A DNA stretch of 64,000 bases from Podarcis gaigeae (lineage: Eukaryota). Numbering within the stretch: the first letter of the stretch is position 1; each line of letters opens with the position of its first letter. The notes beneath the pieces were generated by a model. It was not told where the DNA came from, did not search any database, and saw nothing but the letters and a program-made list of their open reading frames with translations. The stretch lies in the NCBI GenBank assembly GCA_964106915.2, contig OZ066914.1, one strand, 5' to 3'. Shown piece after piece: positions 24,630 through 62,651 of the stretch. A program made the position numbers and the translations under genes.

Positions 24630-25720
24630 AGGCATGCGGCTTCGACAACAGCTGCCTCACTCCCGCAGGAGGATGCTGACCTAGTAGGTCGGGCTGCCAC
24701 CCTCAGCATCCTTACTAGGTCAACTTCGGTCGGAAAAGTCCGCCAGGTAAACACGCGTCGCGCGAGGGCTGCCAATCTCCGGGGGGCGGGGCTCCGGCGG
24801 GCGCCGAGCGAGCCGCGCGCCCTTGGCGAGCGTGCGCCGGGCTCCCCGAGGCCCTTTTCCCGCCTTTTCTTGACAGAAAACGGCAAGCAGCCGTCTTGCC
24901 CGCCCGCCTGCCCTCCGCGCTCCTTGACCCCGGGAGCCGCCGCCGGGCTCCTCGGGGAAGAAGGGGGGCCCTTATGAGGGGGGGGGGTCGCTTCTAACCA
25001 AAAGCTCAGCAAAAAGCCGTTGGGACTCACACAGTGAAGTGATAGACGAAGCACTTCCAGCCGGTGGGTCTCTCCAGGAAGTTGTAGACCCTGCCTTGGA
25101 TGTGGCTGCGGCTCAGCAGAGGTCTGCGGACGCTGTAGATGGAGACGCGCGGGTCGAAGCTGACCGGAGGGCGAGGGTAGTCGCCGCCTCCGCCGCCGCT
25201 CATGGCCACGGTGGCTTCGGGCCCCTCGACGTACCGCGCGCGCTGCTGAGTCGCGCAGCCGGTGCCGCCGGGCGTCGTCCCCCCCGCGGGCGCGGAGAGC
25301 GAGAAAGGCGCGTAGTGCGCGTTGGCGGCGTTCTCGGCCAGCTCCAGAGCCGAGGGTTTCATGCTGCCTTTCCTGGACGTGACGGACAGGCGCCCCAAGC
25401 TCCACGGCTTCCTCTCCGCCTTGGGCGAGGAAGGAGAAGACATCGTAGAGGCGCGCGCGGAGGGGCGGGCCGGCGGGATGCGGAGCCAGGCAGCGAGCGC
25501 GACGCGTCTCTCGCTCGCTCTCCTTCCCCCGCGGCCTCCGCTCAAGTCCCCGAGAGCTCGCCTTGGCCCCGCCCACTCCGGGGGAGGGCTCCTCGGGGAA
25601 GGCCCCTGCTCCCTCCGCCTCGCCGCTGCCAGCAGCCACCCAAGGAGCCCCGGGGGCAGCGCGGCGGCGGCGGCTGCTCGTCCCTTACTCGCGCAAGACG
25701 GCCGAGACTTTCCGCAGCTG
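24630..25720. promoter_or_regulatory. CpG island covering the KCNQ1 promoter, 5'UTR, exon 1 and start of intron 1
   Basis: Abrupt GC- and CpG-rich block in an AT-rich, CpG-poor background. GC box GGGCGGGGCC on the minus strand at ~25565-25574. Confidence 0.85.
25031..25443 (-). CDS. KCNQ1: KCNQ1 (Kv7.1 voltage-gated K+ channel) first coding exon, 413 nt, ends in phase 2
   Basis: Translation [19 protein letters not shown]...RKGS...[49 protein letters not shown] matches the KCNQ1 N-terminus and start of S1 (human ...[48 protein letters not shown]). The ATG at 25443 has A at -3. A GTGAGT donor follows at 25030-25025, at the same codon position and phase as human exon 1. Confidence 0.96.
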
Positions 25721-52200: not shown

Positions 52201-53901
52201 GTATACTAGGAAAGTTCTTCATCCTGCGCAGTGTTGTTTGCGTTGACTGACAGCAGTTGATAAGAATTTCAGACCAGGGGTTTTCCCTGGAAATGCTGGG
52301 AATCTGCATGCAAAACCCTTGCCCAAAATAGGTCCAAGGAAGTCAGGAGTGAGAGAGTTCAGTGAAGCTGTCAAGTGGGCCTAGGCTTGGTAATTGAGGC
52401 ATTATGGGAGAGCAAGAATGAGCGGCCATATTGGTTCCCAAGACCTCTTGAAAACAACAGAGCAGCTGGTAGGCTTTGCTGCCGAAAAACAATTGGGGAA
52501 GGCAGCTTCCTTTGTCGTGGTGCTGAGGGTTGGGGCGGGGGATGGAGGTGAGGACAGGCTTTGTGCCTGTGTTGGCATGCAAGAGAAATTCCTACCCCAA
52601 TTAGGGCTTATGAACTAATTGGCAGCACACTCCCATTCCAGCAGCCAAAGCCAAACAATCGCAGACAATTTATTTCCTCCATGGGCAGCTAACAAAGCAC
52701 AGGATCCTTCAGGCAGCCACCATGACTCAACTGGATCCCTTCTGCATTCGTTGTGAAGTATTTCTTAGAAAGAGGTTTTGAAAAGTGTTTCAACAAAGCC
52801 ACACCAGCCTTTAGCCTGCCAGACCATTCAAAACAGAGGCTTTGGTCTTTGAGTCAGGCTCAGGGCCAGGGTTTGTGCATACTACTAACAAGTGCGCTGC
52901 CCCTCACATGGTCATTGCTATGGGCTTGTGTGCACCTGTACACATCTGTTGCACTTATGTGACTTTAAAAAGCTGGAGGAAACCTTGAAACATTTATGTG
53001 ACATTGACTTAAGCCAGGATGTGAGGAGTCAGGTTCTTCCCCTCTCATTGGCCAAAGTTGAAAATTAATAGTAAAAAGCAAGGCGTCTGTGGTAAATGTA
53101 TTCAAAATTAGTATGAAAGCAGCTCAGAAGGAATGAGGTGCAAGGTAATGGCCAGGCCAAGATAAGGCCATCACATTCGGATATTTAACAAAACATAAAA
53201 TTTCCATCCAAGATGGTTGTCAACAGAAATGGAATGGGAGAACATCATACCAGGCAACTTTTTTGGATCTGAATCCAGAATGCACGTCTTCTGGGATGCG
53301 TTCATGGGCATTTCACGTGACCCATGCTGCACCCCAACCCCCAAAAAGTGCTTTTGGGGGGCTAGAGCACAGCACAAAAGCACGTGAGATCACGGCACTC
53401 AAAATGGCCACCGAGATCTTGCATGAAAAAATGGGATGCCCCATTTTTTCCAGGGCACTTGGCAGGTATGGAATATTTTATTTCTTTCAGTGGAAAACAA
53501 ATGGCTATACAGGGAAGCAGTGGTTCACGAGGTCCAATTACTGTTTGCCTGGGTGAATCATAGCCAAAAATGACACAGTGTGGTCAGGCACAGGATTGTC
53601 ACCTTTACTCGAAGGGTCAGGGCTGGTATCAGTATCTGGCATCCTGCTGGGGCCCTAGAACTCTGGCAGGGCTCATCACTGGTGCCTGGTGCTTCAAGCA
53701 ATGCCCAACAGCTCAATCTCACAGCCATTTTGATTTCCCAGAATACCTCAGGGGATTTGTGGGAAATTAAAATAGGGATACCAGTGGAAGTGAGGACCTG
53801 CAGACAAATAAAGGAGGAGGGCACTGTTTGCCCAGAACCTTGAAAATCTTGATCTAGTCAGAGAACATTTGAAATGTTTAAATTAAAATATTCCCTGTAG
53901 T

Positions 53902-54017
53902 CAGGGCTTTTTTTCACCCAGAACTCAGTTCCGGAACCTCTTAGGTGGGCACCATTGCCACTCTAAGAGAACAAGGGAGGTGTTCGTGGCACCTCTTTTT
54001 CTAGAAAAATAGCACTG
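53902..54017. mobile_element. hAT-type MITE
   Basis: CAGGGCTTTTTT...AAAATAGCACTG with TSD CCTGTAG(T/A). Confidence 0.7.
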
Positions 54018-54314
54018 CCTGTAGAGATATATTAAAAAGTATAGAAGTGAAGGAAGCCTCTTACTTCAGTAGTCAGAAACTAGCTAAGTGGCAACCTAGA
54101 TTAGAAATCCTTAATAGCAGAGTTGCCTCTGAGCTGCCTATGGTACATGCAAAAGGCATTGAAAGAGCTTGGGGAGGGAGGCCACAAACGCAGTTACTCC
54201 TAAGTATCTCTTCAGAGATTATAATAAGCAGATCACATGAAGACTGATTCACATACTGAGGTTACCACTGGGTCTAGGTTATGTTGAGTCATGCCCAGAT
54301 GTGTAGGTGGCACT

Positions 54315-54375
54315 GGCTACTTCGTTTTTCCGACGGAGGTTAACTCGTCAGACTAGTTTGCGATAGTTAGTAGCC
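54315..54375 (-). ncRNA. Candidate type III hammerhead-ribozyme-like RNA (core GAA instead of GAAA)
   Basis: Minus strand: GGCTAC-TA-ACTA(tcgcaaac)TAGT-CTGACGA-GTT(aacc TCC gtc GGA aa)AAC-GAA-GTAGCC. Stems III, I and II and the CUGANGA box are all in register. Confidence 0.5.
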
Positions 54376-56394
54376 TACTGCGTTTTAGTACCATAGCATA
54401 CTTGGGTGGCCTCATTCTTCCCCAGGGATATTTGAGTTTTCCTTCCCATTAATTAGCACACACTTCCTATAAAAGGAAATGGATGAACCTTTAGGTATCT
54501 AGGGCAGTGAGATCACTATAAATACACTGCTCTTTTAAAAAGGTAACATGACTGAAGCTGTTCCTTGAATCAGGAGATTGCATATAGGATACTTAAAGGA
54601 AAAATATATGAACGTGTTGGGGTTTTTTTTTTTTGGGGGGGGGTAATATTGTTGATTTTCCAGCGTGCAGAACAGTCTCACAACACAGGCCTCTTCTTCC
54701 CATATTGTTTTCCAGCCCCTTCAGCCACAGGCATCTTTGAGATGCTCATTGTAAGGCATGCTGCGCATTCTGGAGAGCAGAATGTTACAAAGCTAGTAAA
54801 GGAAAGTAGCATCTCTTTGAACTGGGGTAGCTAACAACAACTTATGCCTGTGTATGGCCCTCCAACTGGTTTGTTGTGCTCCCCAGTCGCTCCTCGAAAT
54901 GTGTCACTTTAATTTTTTTTTATTTTTTGGACTGCTCCTATAGGTCTCCAGCTGTGTTGTCAAATTATTATTTTTAGTCCTTTTAAATAATAATAATAAT
55001 GTAGATTTTTAAATTGACTGGTCCCTTAGGTTGTCTGCTGTGATACTATTATTTTGCTGACTGCTTCTTGTTGTGACACAGGGATGCCAAAATATTGTGT
55101 GACCATCCAAGACCCAAGATCTGCTCATTTTAAATAAAAATAAACATTTTAATATCACCCCCCCGACACAAAAATGTTCCCTTATGTACATAGGAAAACG
55201 GGAAGCTCCCTTATATTGTCTATTGATCCATTTAGTTTAGAATTGCTTATACTGACTGGTAGCGACTCTCAAGTATGTCAGGGAGCCAACACTCCCAGTG
55301 CTTCCTGAAATAGAACCCAGGGCCTTCTGCATGAGACACAGATGCTATCTCTGCGCTATGGTACCCCAATGTGATGCCCAAATGATTTTTGTAGCTCCTC
55401 AATCCCCCCCCCAACGTATATAACGGCAGTTTAAAAAACAGAGGCAAAAGCACGCCATAAAACCGAGTGCAATCCAGTTAAAAATAGTTCAGCAGCTTGA
55501 TAAAATAGAGGCACCAAGACCCTAGGAAAAGGCAACCCAAATATATATATAAAGGCCTCTTTGAAGGCTTGTACTGTCAGGGCCATTTGTAATTCATTTG
55601 TAAGGGAGTTCTACAGCCCAGGAGATGCTCTTGCTTAAAGACTATCTTTCTTCTAGCAAGCGGAGGCAGCTCTCATGTATTAAATTGTAATTTATCTCAC
55701 ACTTCCTTCAGTATCTAAAAAAGGCATCTATATTGAGGTTTTGACAGCCAGCAGTCAATTAACTAAAAATGAAAAGCAGGTAATTAACCAATTCAAATTC
55801 TGTAATCAGTTCACAGCCCCAGTCCTCCTACATTTTGAGCCAATGAAGCATTTTAGTTCCTGGACAGAATAAATCTGGGGGGGGGGGGGGGAGATAACGT
55901 GGTACAGGTGTAACATAGTACACCTGTAACTAAAGTGCTGCCTATACCTTCCCAAGTGCTGCTCTAAGATGCCACCTGGTGGTTGTTTCTGAATGCTGCT
56001 GTACACTGAAGTGGGAAGGGGAGGGAGGAGGAGGAGGAGGAGAACGACAGGAACAGGGGGAACTGACCATGGCAGTAATGGATGAACTCATATGTGGAAA
56101 AGCAAAGGAACTGGATATTGCGAGCTAGGCTCAGTCCTAGTGGTACAGAACACAGAAAGATGGGGGCGATTATGAGGTTCAAAACACAGAAATATGGAGT
56201 GATTGTGGGGTTCAGAGCAGCAGAAATTAGAAGCCGTGAAAGACGGAATGGGACTATCATTAGGCTGCCCAAAACTTGGTTGCCCATAAGAGTGTGGAAA
56301 GCGAGCAGTGCCACAGTGCTTCCTGACAAGGGTTGTACTGAGAAAAGCTGCAAATATTCTTATTCTTATTTTGCATTCAGGCCTTTCTTGATGA

Positions 56395-57779: not shown

Positions 57780-57970
57780 AGGAGGAGAAGGCTATTGACA
57801 GCTACCAGGCATGAGGGCTGGAGGCAGTAATGATTCTGAATACCAAGTTGCCACAGGAGAGAAGAGGGCTCTTGTGTTCAAATCCTGCTTTCTGGCTTTC
57901 CACAAGCATCTGATTGTGAGAACAGAATGCTAGTCTAGATGGGACATTGGCATGATCCATGTTCTTATGT
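57780..57970 (+). mobile_element. Old CR1-type LINE 3' end that served as the L1 target
   Basis: Aligns by eye with the reverse complement of the CR1-like fragment at 24120-24260. Ends ...GATGGGACATTGGCATGATCCATGTTCTTATG. Confidence 0.6.
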
Positions 57971-57994
57971 ACATTCACGGTAATCTCTGGCTGG
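57826..57994 (+). repeat. Left copy of the 169-bp perfect direct repeat (putative TSD of the L1)
   Basis: AGTAATGATTCTGAATACC...GGTAATCTCTGGCTGG, base-for-base identical to 62483-62651 by manual comparison. Confidence 0.95.
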
Positions 57995-58431
57995 CCTTCA
58001 GACTTGGAAGACTCACAAAGAGAGAAAAGCCCAGAGACTGTTTGATTACGTTGAGATCAAAGGAGGAAAGGGACAAGATTTTGGGCCTGCACTACGGAAG
58101 ATCCCTGAACATTTCGGACAAAAGAATTGAGATTTTTAAGGACATTCCTAAACAGCTGTTGGACCTCAGATCTGAATATTTGGACTTAGTAAAACTGCTG
58201 AGAAGCAACTCAATCATCTTTAGGTGGGACTTTCCCCAAGGATTATCTTTTACCTTTAGAGGGAAGAAGATTAAAATTAGAACTTTGGAAGATAGGGATA
58301 AGTTTTTGACTGCCTACGGAGAGGACCTTCATAAAGGACTTGAACTACCCTCAGGGCCTGAACCACCACAGGTACCTGTACCTCAGAACCCTGAAGACTC
58401 ACAGAACAAAACACCATCCCAAGGAAACTAA
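57952..58431 (+). CDS. C-terminal half of L1 ORF1p (end of RRM plus CTD), fused in frame to an ATG in the flanking target DNA
   Basis: AFRLG...KPRDCLITL...KRIEIFKDIP...FRWDFPQGLSF resembles the L1 ORF1p RRM/CTD. The first 14 codons (57952-57993) come from the duplicated host flank. Confidence 0.7.
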   Translation: MIHVLMYIHGNLWLAFRLGRLTKREKPRDCLITLRSKEERDKILGLHYGRSLNISDKRIEIFKDIPKQLLDLRSEYLDLVKLLRSNSIIFRWDFPQGLSFTFRGKKIKIRTLEDRDKFLTAYGEDLHKGLELPSGPEPPQVPVPQNPEDSQNKTPSQGN

Positions 58432-61400
58432 ACAGATCCATCCAGGATGTCTCTGCAACTTTTAAGCTGGAACATAAATGGCTGTAACAGCCCGGAAAAA
58501 AGGAAGAAAATCTTTCACATATTAAAAAAGGAGCAACTAGACATTACTTGTCTACAAGAAACACATGTGACTAGGCTCCACAGAAAAATATTGGTAAATA
58601 AAAGGTTAGGCCAAGAATTTATATCTTCGGATTCAGTTAAGAAGAGAGGAGTGGTGATATATGCAAAGGAGAGCCTCTCACCAAAATTTCTATTTAAAGA
58701 TGAACATGGAAGAATTTTGGCAATTGAAATACAGCACCAAGGAGAGAAAATTTTGATATTAGGAATCTACGCTCCAAATGAAGGGAAATCAGAATTCTAC
58801 AAGAAGTTGCATGAGATTATGCTGGATTATCTGGACTATGATAACATCATCATGATGGGAGATATGAATGGGATCGTTTCAACGAACATGGATAGGTCAC
58901 AAAGCCAAAAGGTTACTAAAGATGGCAGACTACCAAAGACCTTTTTCGAAATGACAGACAACATGGACTGGATTGATATATGGAGGACAAAGAACCCCTT
59001 GGGGAAAGAAGGAACATTTTTCTCTGAAGCCCAACTGACTTGGACAAGAATTGACCAAATATGGATTTCTAGAGGTCTGGCTCCTAAGGTGAAGAAAGTG
59101 GAAATCTGCCCAAAGACCTGCTCCGATCATAATGCGTTGAAAATGGACATGACATTATTACCAACCGGCTCCTTTAGATGGAAGATGAATGACAACTTGT
59201 TTAGAGATCAGGAGATTATTAAGAAGGCCAAAAAAACAATAAAGGACTACTTTGAGATAAATTTGAACACTGCTGTGGAAAAAAGAACAATCTGGGACGC
59301 AAGCAAAGCTGTGATGAGAGGGTTCTTGATACAACAGAACGCCATAAAGAAAAGACTACAAAATGAGAAAAAGGATAAGATTTTGGGGAAAATTAAAGAG
59401 TTAGAGAAGAAACTAAGAGTAAACCCGAAGTCACAGCCGATCTTGAGAGAAATTAAACTTCATCAGGCACAATATTCCAAACTGATAAATCAGGAAATAG
59501 AATGGAAGATTAAATTAATGAAACAAAAAACATTTGAATCGGCTAACAAATGTGGGAAACTGCTGGCTTGGCAGTTGAAGAAGAGACAAAAGTTGAACAT
59601 AGTAACAAATTTGGAAATAGAAGGAAGATATATTCAGAACCCGGTGGAAATTAGAAAATGTTTCCAGAAATATTTTAAGAAATTATACACTCAAGGGCCA
59701 CAAAATGAGGAAGAGATTGCAAAATTTTTGGAGAAAAATGGACTTAAAAAACTATCACAAGAAAATAGATCACTCCTGAATAGTAAAATAACACGATTAG
59801 AGATAGAACATGCCATTCAGAATATGAAGCTGGGCAAGTCTCCAGGGCCAGATGGCTTGACCTCCAAGTATTATAAGACATTAAGTGACTATTTGATTCA
59901 ACCACTGATGGAGGTCAGCAATGAAATTATGGAGGGAAAGAAGGCGCCTGAATCGTGGAAGGAAGCTTTCATCACATTGATACCAAAATCAGAAACTGAA
60001 AAGACACAACTTAAGAACTACCGTCCCATTTCCCTTTTAAATGTGGATTATAAAATATTTGCTGACGTTTTGGCAGGAAGACTCAAAAGAGTTTTAAATG
60101 AGATAATTCATAAAGACCAGGCAGGCTTTCTCCCAGGAAGACACTTGTTTGCTAATACAAGGAACATTATTGACATTTTGGAACTTTTGCAAACAAATAT
60201 TAACACTAAAGCAGTTTTAATTTTTATAGACGCGGAGAAGGCCTTCGATAACATCTCTTGGAAATTTATGAAGGGGAATTTAAAAGAAATGGGAGTGGGG
60301 CGGGGTTTTGAAAATGGGATTGACGCGATTTATTCAGAACAAAAGGCAAAACTGATAGTCAACAATGTGGTTACAGAAGAGTTTAAGATTGAAAAAGGGA
60401 CACGACAAGGCTGCCCGATTTCCCCCTTGCTGTTTATTTCTGTCCTGGAGGTGCTCTTGAACTTGATTAGAGGGGACCGGTTGGTGCAAGGGATTCAGAT
60501 CGGAGCGAAACAATATAAACTTAAAGCTTTTGCAGATGACCTTGTTTTGACATTGCAAGAGCCAGAATCTAGCACAAAAAGAGTGTTACAATTGATTCAG
60601 GACTTTGGTCGGGTAGCGGGCTTCAAACTAAATAAACAGAAAACTAAGGTGTTGGGAAAAAACTTGACAGATGCAGAGTCAGAACGGTTTCAGAGAGAAA
60701 CAGAACTAACTGTGGTTAAAAAAGTAAAGTACCTAGGGGTAAACATAACAGCAAAAAATCTGAGTCTATTTAAGGACAATTATGAAAAATGTTGGTCTGA
60801 AATTAAGAGAGACTTGGACAGTTGGTCAAAATTGAAGCTTTCTTTGCTAGGCCGAATTGCTGCTATTAAGATGAATGTATTGCCTAGGATGTTGTTTTTG
60901 TTTCAAACATTGCAAATTGTGGACAAGACGGAGTGTTTCAGGAAGTGGCAGAGAGATATTTCTAAATTTGTCTGGCAGGGCAAAAAGCCCAGAATTAAGT
61001 TTAAGATATTAACTGATGCGAAAGAAAGAGGGGGCTTTGCCCTGCCAGACTTAAGGTTGTACTATGAAGCCGCAGCTTTCTGCTGGCTAAAAGACTGGCT
61101 ACTTCTAGAGGACACTGATGTGTTAGATTTAGAAGGTTTTAACAATGCATTTGGTTGGCATGCATACTTATGGTATGACAAAGTTAAGATCAATAAGGCC
61201 TTTAAGAACCATATTGTCAGGAAAGCAGTGTTTAATGTCTGGACAAAATACAAAGACCTATTGGAAAATAAAACTCCAAGATGGCTATCACCTCTGGAGG
61301 CTAAGGCCCGAAAAAGACCCAATATGGAGGCCAAATGGCCGAAATATTGGGAAATAATAGAGAAAGAGGGCAATAATTGGAAATTGCAGAGTTTGGAAAA

Positions 61401-62482
61401 AATGAAAGACAAAGTGCGAGACTGGTTACATTACGCTCAGATTCAAGAAATTTTTAAAAAGGATAAAAAGTTAGGATTCCAGGTGGAGAAATCGAAGTTG
61501 GAAACAGAATTGTTAGAACCTAAGACTAAAGTACTCTCAAGAATGTATAACTTGCTGTTGAAATGGAATACACAAGATGAAATGGTTAAGTCGGCCATGA
61601 TAAAGTGGGCACAGGATATTGGGCATAATATTATGTTTGAGGATTGGGAAAGGTTGTGGACCACGGGGATGAACTTCACGGCATGTAATGCTCTGAAGGA
61701 AAATGTAATGAAAATGATATATAGGTGGTACATGACCCCAGTTAAACTTGCCAAAATATGCCATGTGCCAGATAATAAATGTTGGAAATGTAAGGAAAAT
61801 GAAGGAACATTCTTTCACCTCTGGTGGACTTGTCCCAGGGTGAAGGTCTTCTGGGAAATGATATATAATGAGCTGAAAAAGGTATTTAAGTATACCTTCC
61901 TTAAGAAACCAGAGGCCTTCCTCCTGGGCATTGTCGGCCAGATGGTGCCAAAGAAGGATCGAACATTCTTTTTGTACGCAACAGCAGCAGCAAGGATACT
62001 TATCGCCAAGAAGTGGAAAACTCAAGATCTACCCACTCTGGAAGAATGGCAGATGCAGCTGATGGACTATATGCAACTGGCTGAGATGACTGGCAGAATT
62101 CGAGACCTGGGAGAAGAGAGGGTTGAAGAAGATTGGAGGAAATTTAAGACTTATTTACAAAAATACTGTGATTTGGTGGAAAGTTAAGTAGGATGTTTGA
62201 TCATAAATAATTGGCCACCACAAAATCGGATCGGAATGGGATGTAAAGTGAGATTAAGAGAAATTAATTTGCAGAGGACTATATTTAAATAAGTGGTTAT
62301 AAAATTTGCAAATTAGATGATAAATTGCATGGAAAAAATCTATGATGATGAAAATGGCAGCGGGAGATGTGAGGAAGTCCAAAGAAGTTATGAAACTCTG
62401 TTGAGATAAAAGTAAGGTTGTTTATTGTCTTTGTACTTTATTCTGTAAAAACCCCTAATAAAAAATTTTATTAAAAAAAAAA
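57995..62482 (+). mobile_element. L1-clade LINE, 5'-truncated within ORF1, with intact ORF2, 3'UTR, AATAAA and A-tail
   Basis: ORF1 remnant, 15-nt spacer (58432-58446), ORF2, AATAAA at 62457-62462 and A-run at 62473-62483. Flanked by an identical 169-bp direct repeat. Confidence 0.95.
58447..62187 (+). CDS. LINE-1-type ORF2p (APE endonuclease + reverse transcriptase + C-terminal CCHC), 1246 aa, uninterrupted
   Basis: APE motifs SWNING, LQETH, IYAPN, GDMN, SDH. RT motifs KSPGPDG, YRPISLLN, DAEKAFD, RQGCPISP, FADD, KYLG. C-terminal CWKC...HLWWTC. Confidence 0.96.
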   Translation: MSLQLLSWNINGCNSPEKRKKIFHILKKEQLDITCLQETHVTRLHRKILVNKRLGQEFISSDSVKKRGVVIYAKESLSPKFLFKDEHGRILAIEIQHQGEKILILGIYAPNEGKSEFYKKLHEIMLDYLDYDNIIMMGDMNGIVSTNMDRSQSQKVTKDGRLPKTFFEMTDNMDWIDIWRTKNPLGKEGTFFSEAQLTWTRIDQIWISRGLAPKVKKVEICPKTCSDHNALKMDMTLLPTGSFRWKMNDNLFRDQEIIKKAKKTIKDYFEINLNTAVEKRTIWDASKAVMRGFLIQQNAIKKRLQNEKKDKILGKIKELEKKLRVNPKSQPILREIKLHQAQYSKLINQEIEWKIKLMKQKTFESANKCGKLLAWQLKKRQKLNIVTNLEIEGRYIQNPVEIRKCFQKYFKKLYTQGPQNEEEIAKFLEKNGLKKLSQENRSLLNSKITRLEIEHAIQNMKLGKSPGPDGLTSKYYKTLSDYLIQPLMEVSNEIMEGKKAPESWKEAFITLIPKSETEKTQLKNYRPISLLNVDYKIFADVLAGRLKRVLNEIIHKDQAGFLPGRHLFANTRNIIDILELLQTNINTKAVLIFIDAEKAFDNISWKFMKGNLKEMGVGRGFENGIDAIYSEQKAKLIVNNVVTEEFKIEKGTRQGCPISPLLFISVLEVLLNLIRGDRLVQGIQIGAKQYKLKAFADDLVLTLQEPESSTKRVLQLIQDFGRVAGFKLNKQKTKVLGKNLTDAESERFQRETELTVVKKVKYLGVNITAKNLSLFKDNYEKCWSEIKRDLDSWSKLKLSLLGRIAAIKMNVLPRMLFLFQTLQIVDKTECFRKWQRDISKFVWQGKKPRIKFKILTDAKERGGFALPDLRLYYEAAAFCWLKDWLLLEDTDVLDLEGFNNAFGWHAYLWYDKVKINKAFKNHIVRKAVFNVWTKYKDLLENKTPRWLSPLEAKARKRPNMEAKWPKYWEIIEKEGNNWKLQSLEKMKDKVRDWLHYAQIQEIFKKDKKLGFQVEKSKLETELLEPKTKVLSRMYNLLLKWNTQDEMVKSAMIKWAQDIGHNIMFEDWERLWTTGMNFTACNALKENVMKMIYRWYMTPVKLAKICHVPDNKCWKCKENEGTFFHLWWTCPRVKVFWEMIYNELKKVFKYTFLKKPEAFLLGIVGQMVPKKDRTFFLYATAAARILIAKKWKTQDLPTLEEWQMQLMDYMQLAEMTGRIRDLGEERVEEDWRKFKTYLQKYCDLVES

Positions 62483-62651
62483 AGTAATGATTCTGAATAC
62501 CAAGTTGCCACAGGAGAGAAGAGGGCTCTTGTGTTCAAATCCTGCTTTCTGGCTTTCCACAAGCATCTGATTGTGAGAACAGAATGCTAGTCTAGATGGG
62601 ACATTGGCATGATCCATGTTCTTATGTACATTCACGGTAATCTCTGGCTGG
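62483..62651 (+). repeat. Right copy of the 169-bp perfect direct repeat (putative TSD of the L1)
   Basis: Starts immediately after the L1 A-tail and is identical to 57826-57994. Confidence 0.95.

Follow-up and report, generated by a model that had tools for sequence, protein, structure and literature searches.

A hammerhead-shaped motif with a one-base-short core between KCNQ1 and TRPM5 in a lizard genome, possibly a tailless retrocopy

The window analysed here, a stretch of 64,000 nt, holds a 61-nt motif (54375-54315, minus strand) whose elements follow the order of a type III hammerhead ribozyme. The motif resembles a type III hammerhead but falls outside the class on core, model score and fold. 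We put the probability at roughly 0.45 that it is a tailless retrocopy of an RNA bearing such a ribozyme, pasted in by an L1-type reverse transcriptase. The observations behind this reading are the sequence, a flanking direct repeat, a single copy in the searches made, a short core in three organisms and change at a neutral rate. The weights given to the different readings are judgements and were not computed; in all of them except that of an active variant, the motif is predicted to do nothing today.

Results

Structure and setting of the motif

All 13 primary pairs of the motif (Table 1) are Watson-Crick pairs and, apart from the missing A, every position of the core is canonical, as is the G10.1-C11.1 pair; re-reading the letters placed each element where the sequence-only reading had put it. 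KCNQ1 was identified by a PDB match (E 7e-27), and its start codon (25443, minus strand) lies 28,872 nt (28.9 kb) from the motif, in agreement with the distance of about 29 kb given earlier. TRPM5 follows shortly past the window end, ~11 kb from the motif, with plus-strand exons near 65.4 and 66.4 kb. The two genes are divergent, and the motif, which lies in the gap between them, is intergenic as judged from coding exons.

A renewed count gave six CpGs in 54323-54382, five inside the motif and one immediately 5' of it, which bears out the earlier description of a cluster unlike its CpG-poor surroundings. The cluster is isolated, and the DNA around it is otherwise unique. A short palindrome is present at 54378-54370, and the 5' copy of the direct repeat extends into it. 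About 300 nt from the motif, 53900-54020 is a short high-copy interspersed repeat with 78-93% identity among its matches; when 2 kb around the motif were compared with the organism's own genome, the 40 candidates scored out of 3,736 were the locus itself and 39 copies of this repeat. Further away, a long imperfect hairpin at 53314-53386 (minus strand) matches MIR2950 weakly (31 bits against a cut-off of 76) and is probably a small inverted-repeat element.

Table 1. Coordinates of the motif, its elements and neighbouring features in the window
Feature	Position	Strand	Remarks
Type III hammerhead-shaped motif, core 1 nt short, predicted inactive	54315..54375	-	Sequence, descriptor match, folding, relatives
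Stem III	54375-54370 / 54320-54315	-	6 Watson-Crick pairs
Cleavage doublet U-A	54369-54368	-	Sequence
Stem I	54367-54364 / 54355-54352	-	4 pairs, 8-nt loop
CUGACGA box	54345..54351	-	Same in E and I; minimum-energy structures bury it in a competing helix
Stem II	54344-54342 / 54326-54324	-	Inner 3-pair hairpin 54337-54329
Short core box GAA	54323-54321	-	Sequence
5' direct-repeat copy, candidate target-site duplication	54375..54386	-	Starts AAAA after CT; best local repeat
3' direct-repeat copy	54317..54328	-	Position 54323 differs in E and I
Putative 46-nt insert between the repeats	54329..54374	-	From repeat boundaries; 4 CpGs
KCNQ1 first coding exon	25027..25443	-	Context; CpG island 24-26 kb
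Young 5'-truncated LINE, open 1,251-aa endonuclease-RT frame, A-tail	57951..62482	+	Context; 3.6 kb from motif

Predicted folding and activity

By descriptor, three helices surround the core with stem III open. The complete core of the type (C3-U4-G5-A6-N7-G8-A9, G12-A13-A14-A15.1, U16.1-H17) is not present, and the active fold is not the favoured one in prediction. The hammerhead fold was computed at -7.5 kcal/mol against a minimum of -18.1 kcal/mol, i.e. ~10.6 kcal/mol above the minimum, and in computed folding the probability of the whole hammerhead fold was about 1e-8, that of stem I about 0.2 and that of stem II below 0.001 at four out of four flank lengths. The minimum-energy fold, a prediction without tertiary contacts, retains stem III and hides the CUGACGA box in a competing helix, where its predicted partner is the CpG-rich stretch just downstream. 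Mutation of G12, A14 or A15.1 is reported to lower hammerhead activity more than 100-fold and that of A13 10-100-fold (PMC4075628), and the catalytic guanosines are reported to have no high-activity mutants (PMC9901934). On these predictions the motif is almost certainly inactive today.

It is hardly credible that the motif is instead a variant ribozyme that still cleaves in organism A despite its shortened core. The remaining core and the G10.1-C11.1 pair are canonical, and some natural core variants do cleave (PMC3088659); those described in the passages considered are insertions and substitutions, none with a shorter GAAA box. A search of the literature for a G15.1-C16.1 variant found none. 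Against an active variant stand the predicted fold probability, the lack of conservation and the loss of G12 in both relatives described below.

Comparison with relatives

Of 23 sequencing runs listed, those of a second sample of organism A (X3) and of organisms E (X7) and I (X19) were compared over 54030-55230; a fourth, X18 (organism H), gave no coverage at the motif. The second sample yielded one contig (54031-54643) with no substitutions and no gaps in the motif, and neither E nor I has an inserted base there, so that the core is short by one A in all three organisms, A, E and I. An assembly error (TT for TTT), offered earlier as one source of the missing base, is thereby refuted. The orthologs with GAAA and compensatory stem changes envisaged in the sequence-only reading did not appear in E or I either, both of which are short-cored and lack any compensatory change.

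Both E and I carry C>T at 54323, which turns the catalytic G12 into A; E differs in addition at 54335, 54362 and 54363, and I at 54339. Rates were counted with the poly-C/A tract at 54600-54660 omitted. Changes outside CpGs amounted to 1/51 in the motif versus 19/1062 in the flanks for E, and 1/51 versus 10/484 for I, while CpG decay affected 3/5 sites in the motif versus 2/8 in the flanks for E, and 1/5 versus 0/2 for I. When all changes were taken together, the motif was the faster part in E (4/61 versus 21/1078 outside, p 0.04), the relatives being close (2-3% apart here) and the counts small. The motif thus changes at a neutral rate, with no constraint. The primary stems are unchanged, with no compensatory change in these two close relatives, yet with only five changed sites, three of them CpG, this gives no sign of constraint.

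The decay of the CpG cluster suggests a sequence that arrived shortly before these species split. In the upstream repeat copy, G is kept at the position matching 54323, which suggests, as an inference from sequence, that the ancestral core had G12 and that E and I lost it through CpG decay; a single change on the branch of A fits too.

These comparisons bear on a further reading, in which the host would once have retained a functional type III hammerhead in single copy, as with Clec2, RECK or DTNB, which then lost its core base shortly before A, E and I split and has been decaying ever since. Although the single copy, the unchanged primary stems in both relatives and the only recent decay of the CpGs would fit, we hold such a history to be most improbable: intact stems are expected from so few changed sites, the competing helix buries CUGACGA regardless of the GAA box, the flanking repeat is left unexplained, and the motif is intergenic, whereas the known retained ribozymes lie in introns or a 3' UTR (PMC6155905).

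Expectation by chance and covariance models

A type III descriptor that required stems of 4/3/4 pairs or more, admitted G-U pairs and accepted either a GAAA or a GAA box gave a single match in 264 kb of the window and its neighbours, namely the motif, with 6/4/3 pairs and on one strand only; ten Markov copies gave no match. The chance expectation was derived from an analytic order-1 null with stems of 6/4/3 pairs, 3-20 nt in loop I and 3-25 nt in loop II. Under it, motifs that are Watson-Crick throughout and have a single defect anywhere in the core should occur 4.3e-5 times per window, ~1.0 times per 1.5-Gb genome (this genome measures 1.51 Gb) and ~11 times per 250,000 windows; with G-U pairs permitted, the expectation for one-defect motifs rises to 157 per genome. 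The motif is therefore unusual for one window and expected at genome scale, and taken alone it does not exceed what chance would give in a scan of this size.

The covariance-model check proposed earlier turned up no match to the motif. In the window, Rfam gave nothing at the gathering score; at E up to 10, 53-56 kb contained five weak unrelated matches and no hammerhead. The RF00008 model had no match in the organism's own genome (68 candidates scored), and RF00163 had one below threshold, elsewhere than the locus. This best RF00163 match (L013:1501-1564; 29.2 bits, below the cut-off), which has CUGAGGA and paired stems without a GAAA box, is probably due to chance. Since RF00163 missed thousands of minimal Penelope hammerheads, such genome-wide RNA model searches are insensitive.

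A chance look-alike in intergenic DNA, with the repeat and the CpG cluster as coincidences, is rather unlikely in our estimate, and much agrees with it: the expectations given above, the lack of an Rfam match, of a family and of conservation, and the unfavoured fold. PMC3088659 warns that consensus matches arise accidentally in large databases, and rejects any core-mutated match. A similar pattern matched viral contigs 11 times, never with a proper stem I, and 10 of these 11 matches are near-identical copies of one stretch that reads as protein-coding. Chance would, however, have to supply a direct repeat, of a quality found in 0.6% of tiles, in the exact register of the defect, as well as an isolated CpG cluster whose decay shows disequilibrium.

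A flanking repeat and a possible tailless retrocopy

The best local repeat in 54200-54500 is 12 nt long, with 11 of 12 positions identical and an offset of 58 nt. Repeats of such quality were found in 29 of 4,599 100-nt tiles (0.6%) of a 464-kb genomic sample, in 2 of 639 window tiles and in 7 of 400 resamples; neither this repeat nor the CpG cluster had been specified in advance, and their p-values are therefore inflated toward a retrocopy. Clusters of at least six CpGs per 60 nt numbered 81 in the 464 kb, of which 50 match other sequence compared and many of the remainder are GC-rich islands by eye; the cluster at the motif fits incoming sequence.

The two repeat copies divide the hammerhead. 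The 46 nt between them hold, in hammerhead order, the stem III 5' strand, which is a 6-nt match to the downstream stem III strand, then the cleavage doublet, stem I, the CUGANGA box (here CUGACGA), G10.1 and most of the stem II region. The 3' copy provides the short GAA box, together with the stem II 3' strand before it and four of the six bases of the stem III 3' strand after it. Both copies have two bases between CG and GTAG, and the shortage of one base is therefore common to both. With a 12-nt repeat at an A-rich target, the site lies within the 8-35 nt of the target-site duplications of tailless retropseudogenes, and like these it lacks an oligo(A) tail, a single A standing between the putative insert and the 3' repeat.

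We infer from this arrangement an insertion, its mechanism and a source RNA. Between KCNQ1 and TRPM5, an L1-type endonuclease would have nicked an A-rich site (CT/AAAA); the target strand would then have annealed inside the RNA over ~12 bases across the 3' half of the ribozyme and primed the copying of its 5' half, giving the 46-nt insert, and repair would have duplicated the target on both flanks as the 12-nt direct repeat. The apparent 3' end of the ribozyme would in this case be target DNA that merely resembles the RNA, and the copy would have been dead on arrival. On this model the 3' half is target DNA, and hence the short core needs no later deletion. Tailless retrocopies are described as priming on 2-18 nt of complementarity at A-rich targets, have been found in the anole lizard, and have the consensus target TT/WAAAA (PMC5322556).

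Several points weigh against a retrocopy. The target reads CT/AAAA where the consensus is TT/AAAA, the two repeat copies disagree at one position, and two coincidences are needed: priming over a long complementary stretch, and a 5' junction that falls just where stem III begins. A source RNA continuing into the target was found in none of Rfam, the organism's own genome and public collections, and no empty site was seen, E and I, the two relatives with coverage, both holding the whole motif. A narrower form of the reading, in which the RNA would be an unknown type III hammerhead-bearing one (a viroid-like or delta-like circle) in the germ line that was captured a single time, through internal priming of the L1 type, not long before A, E and I separated, is unlikely in our view.

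The LINE at 57951-62482 shows that such machinery exists in the genome and has no direct link to the motif. It is flanked by a perfect 125-nt duplication (57826-57950 = 62483-62607), which greatly exceeds the usual L1-type length of 8-30 nt.

The earlier suggestion of a relic or variant self-cleaving RNA divides accordingly in two. A relic fits the CpG-rich sequence, its neutral decay and a repeat like a target-site duplication; a variant self-cleaving RNA is not supported, in view of A in place of G12 in E and I, the unfavoured fold and the missing covariance-model match.

Searches for copies and for a source RNA

In a DNA search of the organism's own genome the locus was single. Four patterns of 25-26 nt with up to 3 mismatches found the locus only, and stem-specific patterns found nothing or the locus alone; one further stem-type pattern matched three copies of a young Penelope family, and another had one chance-like match. 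These pattern searches are blind to copies with indels or more than ~12% divergence. Within that range no paralog with a restored core emerged, and the idea of a retrozyme-like element, likewise part of the sequence-only reading, found no second copy or tandem array in the genome on which to rest: in place of the two or more hammerheads in repeat units of a retrozyme, there is one motif and no array.

Pattern searches of IMG/VR, JGI and GTDB gave no source RNA, and a phage search gave no source and one match at E 4. Four short terms had no occurrence in 11 supplement files of PMC3088659, among which the alignments are perhaps not included. The delta-antigen family PF01517 had no match in the genome in a search without a positive control; the GCCR/YGGC pseudoknot with long helices of delta-like agents is absent from the motif, whose ribozyme shape occurs on one strand only. 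Among the literature matches listed that name both, judged by titles and the starts of abstracts, none reports a hammerhead at KCNQ1, older genome-wide surveys lying beyond this scope.

The 58-nt offset raises another explanation, that the locus represents ~1.2 units of a tandem or circular 58-nt element of type I (dimer-cleaving), with the repeat as terminal redundancy and the palindrome at 54378-54370 as helix III. The period and the palindrome do fall where circular permutation places them, palindromic helices III are typical of animal type I hammerheads (PMC4209133), and vertebrate retrozyme units are reported from 51 bp upward (bioRxiv 10.64898/2026.07.22.740005). We nevertheless find this very improbable: a genome search revealed neither an array nor a permuted copy (no matches, against three in a control), the repeat match stops after 12 nt, and both copies are short-cored, so that the template itself would have been defective.

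Penelope hammerheads in the genome

Minimal type I hammerheads are carried by GIY-YIG loci (30 of 37 examined); a first Penelope family accounted for 32 descriptor matches, and a second family occurred in two loci. The second family has 6,786 pattern matches genome-wide, with 99 of the 100 listed being identical, and 21 of 30 partly overlapping loci hold both orientations. The 464 kb contain 10 copies of Penelope-type hammerheads of three kinds, and the pattern in this genome matches the known one (PMC4209133, PMC8557442). A very recent Penelope burst is visible in the 6,786 near-identical minimal hammerheads of that one family, often in inverted pairs, with several copies truncated or rearranged right at the ribozyme (L048, L056, L027, L039, L085, L098-L100, L104-L133). 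Another young Penelope family has a different minimal hammerhead (L049-L076, L030, L080, L083, L086), and one diverged relative keeps the core (L092:1115).

This abundance lends some interest to the reading of the motif as a decayed Penelope end-piece, in which the motif would derive from a minimal type I hammerhead similar to that of the second family, CUGACGA would really be its helix II 5' strand, and the type III look would be incidental. From 54350 on, the motif resembles helix II of that family, with 12-13 of 5,000 dinucleotide shuffles scoring as well (91-116 of 5,000 with the core fixed; local p about 0.003-0.02 for the match to the pseudo-LTR), and the predicted fold pairs exactly this helix. 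Among genomic tiles with the same core, on the other hand, 2-19 of 296 reach an equal score, depending on which of 12 scoring/target combinations is used, and nhmmer with the family end found nothing at the locus. To go by its near-identical copies, the second family arose long after the locus; searches brought up no older subfamily, and pattern searches for multiple copies in the organism's own genome returned the locus only or nothing. Upstream, a CUGANGA box proper to such an end-piece is absent, and several indels would be needed with the CpGs intact. We accordingly regard a Penelope origin as quite improbable. A Penelope-type inverted junction centred at 54350 was also tried and rejected, its arm score not being significant (694/4,000).

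Discussion

As it stands, the motif matters little: it is neutral, single-copy and predicted to be dead, chance alone should yield about one such motif in each genome, and ordinary Penelope hammerheads are present here by the thousand. Should both an empty site and a source RNA come to light, short retrocopies would preserve a record of viroid-like RNAs once present in the germ lines of vertebrates, and 'one-base-short' ribozymes could be taken for the junctions of insertions instead of the products of subsequent deletion. Were the narrower captured-agent form true, the motif would be a trace, with a date, that such an agent left in the genome of a vertebrate, at a target site that itself mimics the missing half of the ribozyme.

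Type III motifs are reportedly listed in many vertebrate genomes by Seehafer et al. 2011. With the type III hammerheads of RF00008, found in plant satellite RNAs, viroids and LTR retrozymes, the motif shares the order of elements, the open stem III, CUGANGA, the U-H doublet and G10.1-C11.1; it differs in its core one base short, C-U-A in place of R-U-H, the unfavoured fold and the missing model match, and has no second copy or LTR. Tailless retropseudogenes are said to have been treated by Schmitz et al. 2004. They share with the motif a short insert without A-tail, a 12-nt flanking repeat starting AAAA and lizard hosts, and differ in that known cases derive from identifiable host RNAs (tRNA, 5S, U2), whereas neither source RNA nor empty site was found here (PMC5322556).

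The helices of the motif are shorter (helix I 4 bp, helix II 3 bp) than those of a typical type III hammerhead (6 and 4 bp; PMC7936874). A toad delta-like agent has in common with it the unusual C-U-A site and a G after the box, and look-alikes in termite genomes are isolated, without neighbouring ORFs, as is the motif; the toad and termite delta-like hammerheads, however, have long helices I and II and a GCCR/YGGC pseudoknot and cleave, features absent in the motif (PMC7936874). The minimal type I hammerheads of Penelope pseudo-LTRs (PMC4209133) and of non-LTR retrozymes (PMC7229834) are abundant in the genome, and helix II of one family is weakly like 54350-54324. They are of type I, in thousands of near-identical copies with element-length flanks, in contrast to the single motif, which shares no significant flank. 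Like the motif, the retained amniote hammerheads (Clec2 discontinuous type III, RECK/HH9, HH10, DTNB) are single-copy in a vertebrate genome, but they are conserved, located inside transcripts and cleave, whereas the motif is intergenic, unconstrained and core-defective (PMC6155905). The sequence-only reading had treated type III forms as typical of plant viroids, satellite RNAs and retrozymes and vertebrate hammerheads as mostly type I. PMC7229834 agrees, assigning most hammerheads of animals to type I and those of plants to type III; type III is nevertheless not alien to vertebrates, as the Clec2 ribozymes belong to it (PMC6155905) and the toad delta-like circle carries ribozymes of this type (PMC7936874).
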